From: a virus
Direction: 5' to 3' (one strand)
UHGV virus genome: UHGV-0101751
DNA: 20,418 bases
Below, one piece after another: positions 55 through 17,448 of this stretch. Numbering within the stretch: position 1 is the stretch's first letter; every line of letters starts with the position of its first letter. The notes under the pieces are model-generated. The model was not told the DNA's origin and ran no database searches. It saw nothing but the letters and a program-made list of their open reading frames with translations. Made by a program: the position numbers and the translations under genes.

Positions 55-254
55 CTTTTATCTCTCATAACCACCAGCGTCGATGCCGCCGGAGATTGGT
101 ATTTGAATATTCTGGCCTGCGGTGCTGGCTTTGCCTCAGAGACAGGAATAGGACGAGATTGACATGCAGTGATAAGTAACGCGGAGGCAGCAACCAGAGG
201 AAGTAATACGTGTTTCATTGTACCGAACAAAATCCTTATCTTTACGAAAATCAT
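36..254 (-). pseudogene. Lipoprotein gene fragment, 3' end replaced by IS26 sequence
   Basis: The ORF encodes a typical lipoprotein signal peptide with lipobox (MKHVLLPLVAASALLITAC). The reading frame runs across the IS26 junction at 54/55 and stops inside IS26, so the native C-terminus is missing. The likely true start is the internal Met at 216-218. Confidence 0.4.
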
Positions 255-272
255 GGCGCCTCAAGGCGCCAT
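253..272 (-). terminator. Short GC-rich hairpin (8-bp stem, 4-nt loop) just downstream of the 278-556 gene
   Basis: ATGGCGCC-TCAA-GGCGCCAT is a perfect palindrome; on the minus strand it is followed by GATTTTCG. The U-tract is weak. Confidence 0.25.
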
Positions 273-277
273 AATGC

Positions 278-556
278 TCAATCGAGGCGTTTTAGAATAT
301 CGGCCAGATCTTCTTTGGTCATACCCGAGTTTTCGTAAATCTTCATGACCTTTTCACGAGCCTTTGCAGTAGTCTCTAATGACGTAGCTATCTTATCAAA
401 ATCACCCATCGTCATATTGGACAGCACCAGATTGATGATGTCTGCCTTTGACAGTTTTATGCTGCGTTCACGCAGTCGATTCTGAAAGGTCTCTAGTTTA
501 TCGTTTGCTTTTTCGGTTAACTGAACCTGGCAGTGTATAGCGCGTTTCTCGCTCAT
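278..556 (-). CDS. Hypothetical small protein (92 aa), translationally coupled to the upstream helicase
   Basis: Its start codon lies 2 bp after the helicase stop, with a GAGAG Shine-Dalgarno inside the helicase 3' end. No family recognised. Confidence 0.55.
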   Translation of the reverse strand: MSEKRAIHCQVQLTEKANDKLETFQNRLRERSIKLSKADIINLVLSNMTMGDFDKIATSLETTAKAREKVMKIYENSGMTKEDLADILKRLD

Positions 557-558
557 GC

Positions 559-2118
559 TTACTCTCTATTCAAAACAGTGAAATCGAATGTGCTGCCAAC
601 CGGCAAGACCCCCTCGGCAAACCCAGGCGTCGTGTCGATAATGTGTTTCCGCTCATATGAATGCGACATGAGGTATTTGTTGCTCACGTCGATGAAGTCG
701 GTAATAAAGCACACGTTAGCCTGATTCTTTTTGGCTCGAAGACCGCGACCCACACGTTGACGCATCTCCACTTCGGCTTTGCCGCCACCACCCAGAATCA
801 CCGCGCCTACGCTTGGAACGTCGACACCAACATCCAGAATGGTTGAACCAATGAGAACATCTATCTTGCCTGCCGCCAGACTATTAAGTTTTGCTTGTCG
901 GGTAGTCTGGTTTGATTCTCCGTAGATGAAATCGACCTTCAGGCCACTCTCTTTCATCATTTCCATCAAGATCTGACCATGACGCTTCAGACGAACCAAT
1001 GTCATACAGTTCAGACCGTGACTCTTGTACATTAGCGCTTCACGCACAATAGCTTCGTTGCGGCCCAGATTATAGACGATGCCTAACTGATAGGCTTTCT
1101 GGTAAGCCGTGCTCATTCCAACCCGAAAATTCAGGTGTTTTGAAGCAAGTTCGGCTCTAATCCGCGCCTCATCTGGAGTGTACGCGATTTTATGATATAA
1201 AAAGTATGGTTTCGCTAAAATACCTCTGTCGATCAAATATTTCTCCGTTACTTTTATCTCGATGCGACCCGCAACGGCCATGAGACGCATATTTGCTTCA
1301 GTCGAGTCCTTCATGAACGGCGTAGCTGTCAGCGCCAGACGGTAGTCGGCATTGATGCACAACCGGGCGATGTCGTAGAAGTTAGAACCAGATGATTCGT
1401 GTGCCTCTTCCAGAATCAGCAGAGAAACGCTGGACAGGAAGCGTTTAACCAGTTCCCGGCGCTTCAGGTGGTACTGTTTTTTCTCCGGTGATGCGTCGCG
1501 CGGTGGCTCTTCGAGAAAACTGGCCAGGGTCTGCACCGTGGCAACGTTGATATGGCGCGAGACCTGGAACTCACCCGATCCAATCACCCCAACTCTCTGA
1601 CCTTTCAGCCACGGCTCGCCATTCTCCGCGCGGTAGTCGATGGATTTCTGGAAGTTCTCTGCCATCTGGAACATCAGAACCGATCGCGTGGTTAAAAACA
1701 GCGTCATACGACCAATGCGAGCAGCAGCCTTACACGCTACGTTCGATTTACCGCCACCCGTCGCAATCTGGGCAATCATCATCCCTTCGCGCACCAGTGT
1801 TTCCACTGTCTGATCCTGATACGCGTAGTCCGGGTTATACGGGAATGGGTTAACCACCGGATTCGGCTTACCCAGCGCGGGAGCTTTTTCCTTGCGAACA
1901 TGCACGCATTTGATGCCAGCTTTCAGAAGATTGGTCGCAACTGGCTTCGCAAACCCAGCCGGGAACGCGTTTTTACTCCAGTTGAACATCGTGCTGGTCC
2001 CTTTCCAGTCACCAGCCTCCACTTCATAGCTCAACATCTCCTGAACAAGCCGTTTCACGTTGTCATCAGCGCCAGAAATCAGCGCATTGACTGCATTTGA
2101 TACAATCCGAACAGTCAT
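559..2118 (-). CDS. Superfamily-2 DExH-type helicase (519 aa)
   Basis: Helicase motifs are visible in the translation: motif I ATGGGKS, motif II LILEEAHE, motif III LTATP, motif VI QRVGRGLR. An AGGAAAGAGG Shine-Dalgarno precedes the start. Confidence 0.85.
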   Translation of the reverse strand: MTVRIVSNAVNALISGADDNVKRLVQEMLSYEVEAGDWKGTSTMFNWSKNAFPAGFAKPVATNLLKAGIKCVHVRKEKAPALGKPNPVVNPFPYNPDYAYQDQTVETLVREGMMIAQIATGGGKSNVACKAAARIGRMTLFLTTRSVLMFQMAENFQKSIDYRAENGEPWLKGQRVGVIGSGEFQVSRHINVATVQTLASFLEEPPRDASPEKKQYHLKRRELVKRFLSSVSLLILEEAHESSGSNFYDIARLCINADYRLALTATPFMKDSTEANMRLMAVAGRIEIKVTEKYLIDRGILAKPYFLYHKIAYTPDEARIRAELASKHLNFRVGMSTAYQKAYQLGIVYNLGRNEAIVREALMYKSHGLNCMTLVRLKRHGQILMEMMKESGLKVDFIYGESNQTTRQAKLNSLAAGKIDVLIGSTILDVGVDVPSVGAVILGGGGKAEVEMRQRVGRGLRAKKNQANVCFITDFIDVSNKYLMSHSYERKHIIDTTPGFAEGVLPVGSTFDFTVLNRE

Positions 2119-2182
2119 AAACCTCTTTCCTTCGTGCCTTTTGTATGGTAATTGGCTATTATGTTAAGTAAGTGCTTACACA

Positions 2183-16280: not shown

Positions 16281-16456
16281 TGCTCGGCTGGATGTTTGTA
16301 TTTTTAGTCGTCGGCATTGTTATCGGAAGTCTGGTTATGTCCAGCTGTATCCACGATTACGTAAAAGCCGGTGTCATGCAAAGGCGAGGTCGTATTTATC
16401 GCATAGTAGATATCACGGACACACTGAAGGAGATTAAGGATGATCATGTTAAGTAA
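16277..16456 (+). CDS. Small single-pass membrane protein (59 aa), not in the supplied ORF track
   Basis: ATG overlaps the ligase stop. Translation MMLGWMFVFLVVGIVIGSLVMSSCIHDYVKAGVMQRRGRIYRIVDITDTLKEIKDDHVK was read by hand. Confidence 0.4.
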   Translation: MMLGWMFVFLVVGIVIGSLVMSSCIHDYVKAGVMQRRGRIYRIVDITDTLKEIKDDHVK

Positions 16457-16652
16457 ACGAGAGAAGGAAACCCTGCGTGAAATTAGCAAGTGGAAGGAGT
16501 TCTATGCCAACTGGAAGCCGAAGACCAGAGCCAAACTGGAGCGCATGAATCTTGTCGCCAACGTTTCTCCAAAGGGATGTATTGAGAACTATCAACTGAC
16601 TGAAAAAGGTTATTTGTTGTTGCAGCAATTGACTGAGGCGGGGGCGCACTGA
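16440..16652 (+). CDS. Hypothetical small soluble protein (70 aa)
   Basis: Overlaps the end of the previous small gene and is followed by an ATGA-type overlap with the next; charged, helix-rich. Confidence 0.4.
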   Translation: MIMLSKREKETLREISKWKEFYANWKPKTRAKLERMNLVANVSPKGCIENYQLTEKGYLLLQQLTEAGAH

Positions 16653-16804
16653 TGATTCCATACATCATTTTATCTTTTACTGGTGGCGTGGGCCTCGGCC
16701 TCGCAATCTGCCGCGCCCTGGTCCAGCAGGAACTGCAAACCAAAACACTTCGTGTCGGTAAGCGTGTGTATCGGGTTGTTCACGAGACGGGAGTGCGAAA
16801 ATGA
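16652..16804 (+). CDS. Small single-pass membrane protein (50 aa), paralog of 16277-16456
   Basis: Translated by hand as MIPYIILSFTGGVGLGLAICRALVQQELQTKTLRVGKRVYRVVHETGVRK. It shares transmembrane helix plus R-x-G-K/R-x-Y-R-x-V tail with the 16277 product. Confidence 0.4.
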   Translation: MIPYIILSFTGGVGLGLAICRALVQQELQTKTLRVGKRVYRVVHETGVRK

Positions 16805-17106
16805 GCAATTTGACTTCCTTCGACTGGTGGCTGGCAACCTACCTTGTGGCGGCCGGCTTCGGATTTGCCTTTTACGTTGGTCAGTTAATCGTAAAGCTAC
16901 TGCTGATCAGATTCGCCAGCCATAAACGCATAGACGACGGTCTGTGGCGTCTGGGGTCCCTGTTAGAGACGCATTACGGCGAACTCAAGGAAAACGAAAC
17001 TATCACTATTCAAGCGAAGCGTTTTACCGCCATCATCACGAGAACTCCGGAACAAAAGGGGAGCCTGATCAAAAAGATAGCAACTAAACGCATCACAGAT
17101 AGATAA
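16801..17106 (+). CDS. Membrane protein (101 aa)
   Basis: N-terminal transmembrane helix (WWLATYLVAAGFGFAFYVGQLIV); start overlaps the previous stop (ATGA). Confidence 0.5.
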   Translation: MSNLTSFDWWLATYLVAAGFGFAFYVGQLIVKLLLIRFASHKRIDDGLWRLGSLLETHYGELKENETITIQAKRFTAIITRTPEQKGSLIKKIATKRITDR

Positions 17107-17124
17107 GTATTTACTTACTTATCT
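17101..17124. repeat. AT-rich palindrome AGATAAGTA-TTTACT-TACTTATCT
   Basis: Perfect 9-bp arms overlapping the stop codon of the 16801 gene; member of the TAAGT/ACTTA palindrome family. Confidence 0.8.
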
Positions 17125-17448
17125 AATATGTATAAGATCACTTTGTTTTCGTTGAGATGCGACTGTTTGAACGTTAAATATAACTGCAAACGAAGATGCA
17201 TACCTGGCAGTAGCCTAAGAAGCCAAACACCAGCGAGGTCAGTTTCCAGCCTCGTCACCAAAATGGGACACACTGAGCGAGTGTGATTGCAGAACGCAGA
17301 ATAGGGCATATTGCACCATCCATGCCCTATTCAATGAAGTAACAGAATGGGCGGTTGGTTTCATCATTCCATTCACCCATCCCGGTTTCAGCTGACCGTC
17401 CATTCTGTTACGTCATTTCCATTACTTATGTCGTTTATACTTGGGTTA

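Follow-up and report, generated by a model that had tools for sequence, protein, structure and literature searches.

The stretch of DNA analysed here (hereafter the window) comprises 20,418 nucleotides of the virus genome UHGV-0101751, and our subject is the segment at positions 55-17448 in it. An earlier note, made from the sequence alone, had described this segment as a phage-plasmid-like mosaic captured between mobile elements, and had left it undecided whether it is an extrachromosomal prophage (phage-plasmid, P-P) or a packaging-competent satellite, in either case cut short or rearranged by IS26 and a Tn3-family element. We conclude with high confidence that the segment is a residual part of the backbone of a defective P-P related to SSU5 (pSLy3 / SSU5_pHCM2 type), which is now a large non-mobilizable plasmid. 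The earlier note had also reported that no integrase, capsid or tail gene is present, and indeed none is found within positions 55-17448; the capsid and tail genes are absent because of a single 23.2-kb internal deletion, and not because of truncation by IS26 or the Tn3-family element. The lineage bearing this and the neighbouring deletion scars is small and young.

The placement of the segment follows from its relatives. In a megablast search against plasmids, the window matched the E. coli plasmid pB379_2 (NZ_CP090457.1, 152,061 bp) with 100% identity across all 20,418 bases, and the Shigella flexneri plasmid NZ_CP058829.1 (169,932 bp) with 100% identity across 20,418 bases in one piece with 2 mismatches. 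In a search against phages, Salmonella phage SSU5 matched positions 9465-17448 with 92.6% nucleotide identity, and the left part of the window showed ~81% identity to SSU5-like phages of Klebsiella and E. coli, while the complete ~106-117 kb SSU5-related P-Ps of E. coli, e.g. pLAO18, are collinear with the segment at ~99% identity. Furthermore, positions 2120-7900 used as a query gave matches in 812 plasmid records, with at least 80% of the query covered in 736; these are mostly non-mobilizable plasmids of ~105-120 kb from Klebsiella, Escherichia, Enterobacter, Yersinia and Salmonella, the best E. coli matches having 98.5-99.7% identity, and the circular relatives are typed as IncFIB. The supergroup of SSU5-related P-Ps has been described by Pfeifer and colleagues (PMC9600943, PMC12977533), with genome sizes of 85-134 kb in the pSLy3 group and 94-126 kb in the SSU5_pHCM2 group (PMC12977533, Table 1). 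Both its gene repertoire and its relatedness place the segment in this supergroup, and the earlier note was right both on the P-P and on the part of IS26 and the Tn3-family element in truncating or rearranging it.

To describe what has been lost we used the complete relative pLAO18 (NZ_OP242248.1, 111,874 bp) as the reference, and aligned each junction to both of its native sides. The gene order in the left part of the pLAO18 region is a helicase, two ParB-like genes, an ABC-like gene, three open reading frames (ORFs), a terS-like gene, TerL, portal, scaffold (DUF6651) and major capsid; in the middle follow head and tail genes, the tape measure, the tail tip, tail fibre and assembly genes, one ORF, the endolysin (230 amino acids, with a membrane anchor at its C-terminus) and a spanin-like ORF; on the right are a toxin-antitoxin (TA) pair, ParA and its partner, a GIY-YIG gene, one ORF, DnaB, primase, DprA, a RecQ-like gene, three ORFs and the ligase. 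The window is collinear with this order save for three gaps, J1, J2 and J3, which are as follows.

J1, ~2570-2577: ~2.08 kb gone, the first ParB-like gene being joined after its N-terminal half to the phrog_886 gene at mid-length.
J2, 7844/7845: 23.2 kb gone, from scaffold codon 197 to the last 58 codons of the endolysin (its transmembrane anchor), joined in frame.
J3, 14499-14506, at the microhomology GGTATTCG: ~8.4 kb gone, from the primase gene to a 477-nt ORF upstream of the ligase.

The block missing at J2 holds the major capsid, head-completion, tail tube, tape measure, tail tip and tail-fibre genes together with the catalytic domain of the endolysin, so that the set of virion and lysis genes of a functional P-P is no longer complete; the block missing at J3 holds the remainder of the primase gene, DprA, the RecQ-like gene and three ORFs. 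At each of the three junctions, genes that pLAO18 has intact are truncated or fused, which marks the state of the window as the derived one. The scars themselves, namely the scaffold/endolysin fusion at 7254-8021, the ParB_N pseudogene at 2183-2581 and the primase pseudogene at 13972-14505, had been overlooked in the earlier note. Only short and imperfect microhomology is present at J1, J2 and J3, and from their sequences the three look like deletions by illegitimate recombination, neither mediated by insertion sequences (ISs) nor site-specific. In addition, to judge from the annotation, a further ~18 kb appears to be gone elsewhere, probably between an LprI-like gene and a metallophosphoesterase remnant; the counterpart of this block in pLAO18 encodes a Rha regulator, methyltransferases, thyA, dihydrofolate reductase and an SbcC-like ATPase.

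The distribution of the scars is narrow. J1 and J2 are spanned by a single BLAST piece in only five PLSDB records of 113-170 kb, namely NZ_CP090457.1, NZ_CP058829.1, NZ_CP067400.1, NZ_CP086388.1 and NZ_MG516909.1, and the other matches listed are split there. The sources of these five are human pus in China, wastewater in Hong Kong, bovine faeces and, in two cases, silver gulls in Australia. A 400-bp probe across J2 was contiguous in 3 of the 5426 complete E. coli genomes, while 30 others matched one or both of its halves separately; every one of the 51 places found with this probe is on a plasmid and none is chromosomal. One of the two silver-gull plasmids, p1585m1_B (NZ_CP086388.1, 113 kb), is separated from the window by 4 substitutions in 14.3 kb and shows a partly earlier state: J1 and J2 are present and J3 is absent, the RecQ-like gene is interrupted by IS1, there is no Tn3 insertion at the position equivalent to 17448, where the backbone proceeds to YafO, the integrase and CobT, and the IS26 at the left end lies 158 bp deeper in the backbone. 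Therefore, the head-tail deletion was the first step, followed in the branch of the window by the Tn3/IS26 events and J3. The portal gene of p1585m1_B carries a C-to-A change at the equivalent of window position 7159, leading to the nonsense mutation C501*, which is a sign of early decay of the orphaned packaging genes in one branch. An independent deletion is seen in pRHB17-C02_4 (CP057716.1, 69.9 kb), which starts a little past the helicase and reaches the tail-fibre gene, so that terL and portal were lost; this plasmid keeps the endolysin and most of the primase. The loss of the morphogenesis block therefore recurs in the SSU5-type family.

The layout of the two host plasmids that contain the whole window tells which DNA is backbone and which is cargo. 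Collinearity was judged here from the annotation order and from identical protein accessions shared by pB379_2 and pLAO18. pB379_2 begins with the P-P repA, followed by small ORFs with the protein accessions of pLAO18, a LAGLIDADG endonuclease, a 5'-3' exonuclease, dnaE (split by an IS3), an AAA ATPase of identical accession, a CobT-like gene, a tyrosine recombinase and YafO, and the order and orientation from repA to YafO are those of pLAO18 1-28.4 kb. The accessions common to both, in the same order, are WP_001711118.1, WP_023135694.1, WP_023135695.1, WP_023135733.1 and WP_023135728.1. Then comes a first cargo island (ars operon, BCCT transporter, ttr operon and IS elements), and past it the Tn3/IS26 remnants, the window segment and a second, IS26-bounded island of ~63 kb with IncA/C and IncF fragments, the bcs cellulose operon, trpS, malT and dha genes; at 144-152 kb further P-P ORFs follow, and the circle closes to repA. 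The P-P RepA is the only complete initiator annotated in pB379_2, the sole other 'repA' being a 71-amino-acid IncFII copy-number regulator beside an IS26, so the plasmid has retained the P-P replicon as its own. With this RepA, and with ParA and its partner in the window, the element has genes of its own for both extrachromosomal replication and partition. The Shigella plasmid has the same layout at 20.5-169 kb, with the addition, in its first cargo region, of a multidrug-resistance island (40-64 kb) that holds blaTEM-1, tet(A), the class 1 integron array dfrA12-aadA2-cmlA1-aadA1-qacL, sul3 and mef(B), and it also carries arsenic-resistance, tetrathionate-respiration and cellulose-synthesis operons. 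The chromosomal-type operons ars, ttr, bcs and dha occur in both plasmids. The plasmids are typed as non-mobilizable.

The edges of the P-P DNA, which the earlier note had put at 55 and 17448, are exact: an IS26 end lies on the left and the 38-bp inverted repeat (IR) of a Tn3-family element on the right. The flanking features are as follows.

1-54, plus strand: outer end of an IS26 (3' of tnp26), read from the sequence, with the terminal IR at 41-54.
17449-20364, minus strand: Tn3-family remnant, consisting of an intact 38-bp IR (17449-17486) and a tnpA pseudogene (Pfam DDE_Tnp_Tn3, 4e-153).
20365-20418, minus strand: second IS26, with the same end as the first, inverted.

The IS26 terminal repeat is TTTGCAACAGTGCC, with its last base at 54, and in NZ_CP058829.1 an annotated IS26 transposase gene lies directly left of the equivalent of the window. 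The IR of the Tn3-family element, GGGGTTTGAGGGCCAATGATGTAAAAAACCACGCTAAG, has its first base at 17449, and the native P-P homology to SSU5 and its relatives stops at 17448, after a non-coding tail. The tnpA pseudogene (17482-20364, minus strand) is interrupted by the second IS26, which starts at 20365; ~45 N-terminal residues are gone, DUF4158 being matched only from profile position 46, and PGAP labels the remnant as 'partial'. A tnpA remnant that IS26 interrupts at this very point (query 1-2914) is found in 78 of the 5426 complete E. coli genomes, in nearly all cases on plasmids, and is a widely travelling IS26-associated fragment. In pB379_2 (~15654-18504) a ~2.85-kb ISKpn19 unit, which consists of a transposase, a recombinase and a pRiA4b ORF-3-like gene, sits exactly at the P-P/Tn3 junction (window 17440-17450). 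The alignment blocks overlap there by 11 bp, which suggests a target duplication, and the window represents the state preceding this insertion.

The reading that a P-P fragment was captured as cargo by an unrelated plasmid, and is carried between IS26 and the Tn3-family element, has in its favour that IS26 ends lie on both sides of the segment, together with a remnant of the Tn3 family, and that the host plasmids do hold fragments of IncF and IncA/C plasmids (psiAB, parM, umuDC, mobI and an IncFII copB-like repA regulator). We nevertheless regard it as very improbable, since the relation implied by the phrase 'captured between mobile elements' turns out to be inverted: in pB379_2 and the Shigella plasmid it is the P-P backbone (RepA, dnaE, CobT-like, AAA ATPase, tyrosine recombinase and YafO) that flanks the segment, and the cargo islands, which are themselves flanked by further P-P backbone in native order and orientation, were inserted into it. 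Moreover, the sole complete initiator is that of the P-P, and in p1585m1_B the backbone is unbroken past 17448. Both IS26 copies turn the same end toward the window, and are thus inverted relative to each other; no 8-bp target-site duplications were found at them, direct or reverse-complement, as the octamers GTCTGCCG, CTTTTATC, CCCCTA(T/C)G and CTGATGAG all differ. The arrangement is therefore no pseudo-compound transposon or translocatable unit, in which direct IS26 copies and/or an 8-bp duplication are expected. Among the matches listed, the IS26-bounded block was never seen alone on a plasmid with a non-P-P initiator and no other SSU5-type backbone.

A second alternative, also raised in the earlier note, is a packaging-competent satellite, in which terS, terL and portal would have been kept for packaging into the capsids of an intact SSU5-like helper. 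The terS-like, terL and portal ORFs are indeed full length in the window, and p1585m1_B, at 113 kb, lies inside the family range of 85-134 kb (PMC12977533, Table 1). However, the segment belongs to no distinct family, being ~99% identical to complete P-Ps; the scar is limited to five plasmids of 113-170 kb; the two plasmids that contain the whole window, at 152 and 170 kb, are beyond the family size range, and thus not of a size compatible with packaging; and the portal gene has already become a pseudogene in p1585m1_B. Stable co-residence with a helper would also be unlikely, as RepA and ParA are common to the plasmid and any such helper. Phage satellites such as the P4-like elements and PICI form compact families of their own with their own integration or maintenance and helper-hijacking genes, whereas here hallmarks such as an own integrase/att or capsid-redirecting genes are absent. 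We thus reject the satellite as extremely improbable and see in the element a complete P-P minus three deletions. Finally, the probability that the segment is what remains of an ordinary integrated prophage, whose integrase and att sites would lie just beyond the window, is next to nil: there is a tyrosine recombinase ~3 kb past 17448 in the native backbone, but this gene is conserved in the circular P-Ps themselves, the records of the relatives are circular and of IncFIB type, and all matches are plasmid-borne, including the 51 places of the junction probe.

Several points weigh against the reading of the segment as a decayed P-P backbone, or limit its details. pLAO18 is a close relative and not the direct ancestor, so the deletion sizes hold relative to pLAO18. 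No capsid or tail genes are annotated anywhere in pB379_2, nor at 20.5-169 kb in the Shigella plasmid, a result that comes from the PGAP/PLSDB annotation of these plasmids, and not from a sequence search. The window is 1-2 single-nucleotide polymorphisms (SNPs) apart from its two best matches and is without the ISKpn19 insertion of pB379_2, and the 4 SNPs in 14.3 kb between the sister plasmids are too few for a selection test on terL and portal.

The genes of the segment are listed below by coordinates, strand and description.

55-254, minus: small lipoprotein gene, 3' end cut by IS26 (ORF 36-254 enters IS26); phrog_890, 1.4e-9.
278-556, minus: conserved P-P hypothetical protein; phrog_1466.
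559-2118, minus: DEAD/DEAH-box (superfamily 2) helicase; Pfam DEAD 7e-15, Helicase_C 4.6e-13; phrog_16, 1.6e-93.
2183-2581, plus: ParB_N-domain pseudogene; Pfam ParB_N 2.4e-13; phrog_723 profile positions 5-125 of 223 only.
2601-3251, plus: C-terminal remnant of the phrog_886 gene, downstream of J1; profile positions 83-294 of 295.
3261-3527, plus: conserved hypothetical protein; phrog_900.
3723-4364, plus: probable small terminase subunit, by position only; phrog_867 'DNA binding domain', 1e-105; helix-turn-helix (HTH)-like N-terminus, acidic tail.
4367-5623, plus: large terminase subunit (TerL), full length; Pfam Terminase_6N 1.9e-9; PHROG terminase large subunit 2.5e-65.
5657-7231, plus: portal protein, intact in the window; phrog_145, 8e-140.
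7254-8021, plus: in-frame fusion ORF of scaffold (phrog_206, DUF6651) and endolysin anchor (phrog_873), from the junction alignment and translations.
8024-8275, plus: small N-terminally membrane-anchored protein, PHROG 'Rz-like spanin'; phrog_1026, 4e-22.
8444-8965, minus: GNAT acetyltransferase toxin of a type II TA pair; Pfam Acetyltransf_1 1.3e-8.
8973-9242, minus: TacA-like/DUF1778 antitoxin of the type II TA pair; Pfam TacA1 3.5e-26.
9562-10227, plus: small Walker-type ParA; Pfam AAA_31 and MipZ; phrog_164; NCBIfam ParA_partition 3.7e-34 (under its cutoff).
10227-10586, plus: 119-amino-acid ParA partner; matches phrog_5111 only (function not annotated).
10639-11406, minus: LEM-3-like GIY-YIG domain protein; Pfam PF22945 5.5e-7; PGAP name.
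11689-12414, plus: conserved hypothetical protein; phrog_2500.
12475-13815, plus: DnaB-like replicative helicase; Pfam DnaB_C 6.5e-13.
13972-14505, plus: DNA primase pseudogene; phrog_47 profile positions 24-178 of 947 only; PGAP 'partial'.
14471-14923, plus: remnant of the 477-nt ORF, downstream of J3; phrog_5055.
14958-16280, plus: ATP-dependent DNA ligase; Pfam DNA_ligase_A_M 5.5e-12; phrog_114, 4e-124.
16280-16456, 16440-16652 and 16801-17106, plus: three small conserved ORFs, followed by the non-coding P-P tail up to 17448; phrog_4381, phrog_4054 and phrog_4507.

TerL, the portal, the ParA pair, the TA cassette, the two helicases and the DNA ligase, all of which had been called in the earlier note, were recovered by family searches at the same coordinates. 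The call of the small terminase is a positional one: its stop lies 3 nt before terL and its N-terminus is HTH-like, but there is no PDB, Pfam (E<=10) or NCBIfam match to the ORF, only a non-significant one to HTH_psq. TerL is equal in length to that of pLAO18. The ParB remnant is labelled by PGAP as 'partial, missing C-terminus', and in pRHB17-C02_4 the native sequence of the lipoprotein gene extends beyond the equivalent of position 55.

A palindromic motif, TAGRTAAGTA-(N0-6)-TACTTAYCTA, occurs in the window at 5617-5638 (the gap between terL and portal), 11653-11674 (36 nt upstream of ORF 11689) and 17100-17125 (the end of ORF 16801-17106), with 6 half-sites against 0.43 expected by chance. 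It is also found at 19252 in the locus L003 and at 1860 in CP057716.1, and complete relatives have the same and further intergenic sites, with 6 and 4 exact half-sites against 0.05 expected; the motif may be a family-conserved operator or an RNA hairpin. Furthermore, a near-perfect palindrome of 53 bp (11518-11570; 26-nt arms, 85% complementary, 1-nt spacer) sits in the AT-rich stretch of 282 bp that separates the GIY-YIG gene from ORF 11689, on the upstream side of the operon of the DnaB-like helicase. An 81-nt tRNA-Lys(ttt) called by ARAGORN at 9550-9630 (minus strand), over the start of parA, is a probable false positive and is without support from Rfam, a scan of which against the whole window (E<=0.1) returned nothing.

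The segment has the following history. An ancestor collinear with the complete ~106-117 kb P-Ps of E. coli lost three internal blocks at short microhomologies, the decisive step being the removal of 23.2 kb, with one end point within the head-scaffold gene and the other within the endolysin gene; afterwards, IS26 and the Tn3-family transposon entered the backbone and brought large cargo islands to both flanks of the segment. The functions still working would be those of the plasmid side: ParA and its 119-amino-acid partner would serve partition, the GNAT/TacA-like pair would act by post-segregational killing, and the DnaB-like helicase and the ligase would provide accessory replication or repair for the RepA replicon outside the window. 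As far as can be read from the genes, the maintenance of the large plasmid thus most likely relies on the RepA replicon, ParA and its partner, the GNAT/TacA-like module, and the DnaB-like helicase and ligase, while the truncated primase is predicted to be inactivated. The intact terS-like, terL and portal genes would be recent orphans without capsid, tail or endolysin partners. There is only a very slight chance that this module packages the plasmid or headful-sized parts of it, cargo included, into the capsids of a superinfecting SSU5-like P-P at high frequency; if it did, the plasmid would represent a helper-dependent element newly emerging from a P-P.

Both the family, that of the SSU5-related P-Ps, and the process, the decay of a P-P into a plasmid, are already known. 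Compared with SSU5 itself, the SSU5_pHCM2 and pSLy3 groups of Pfeifer et al. and pLAO18, the window has the same genes in the same order, with ParA, the TA pair, DnaB, ligase, TerL and portal in common, and its host plasmid has a RepA-type replicon as they do; unlike them, its lineage is without 23.2 kb of head, tail and endolysin genes and 8.4 kb with primase, DprA and RecQ, and carries large IS-bounded cargo islands. In P1-derived plasmids, a P-P loses essential phage genes and persists on its plasmid functions in a derived state (Pfeifer & Rocha 2024, PMC10879196). The evolutionary process is the same here, but the parent is an SSU5-type siphovirus instead of the myovirus P1, and whereas P1-derived plasmids gained an oriT/relaxase and became mobilizable, the plasmids described here are non-mobilizable and gained metabolic, metal- and antibiotic-resistance cargo. 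pRHB17-C02_4 is likewise a deleted SSU5-type plasmid, with 99.1% identity over the shared parts; however, its deletion end points differ, and terL and portal, lost there, are kept in the window. With the IS26 pseudo-compound transposons and translocatable units the window shares only that IS26 copies bound a block, for its copies are inverted and without target-site duplication, and the block is backbone instead of cargo. The problem that defective P-Ps pose for detection has been discussed (PMC12977533). In the papers on strains B379 and 1585m1 these plasmids are not treated as P-P derivatives, nor are they discussed as such in the supplements of the tyPPing paper and the literature searched by accession number.

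The window thus provides a well-resolved and cleanly dated example, at the base-pair level, of an SSU5-type P-P turning into a plain cargo and resistance plasmid, in which one deletion at a microhomology takes the whole morphogenesis and lysis block, and further deletions, IS26/Tn3 insertions and the gain of cargo follow. Such plasmids type as 'IncFIB' and as P-P-like, yet would be neither phage-transmissible nor conjugative, which bears on their classification by P-P detectors and on resistance surveillance.

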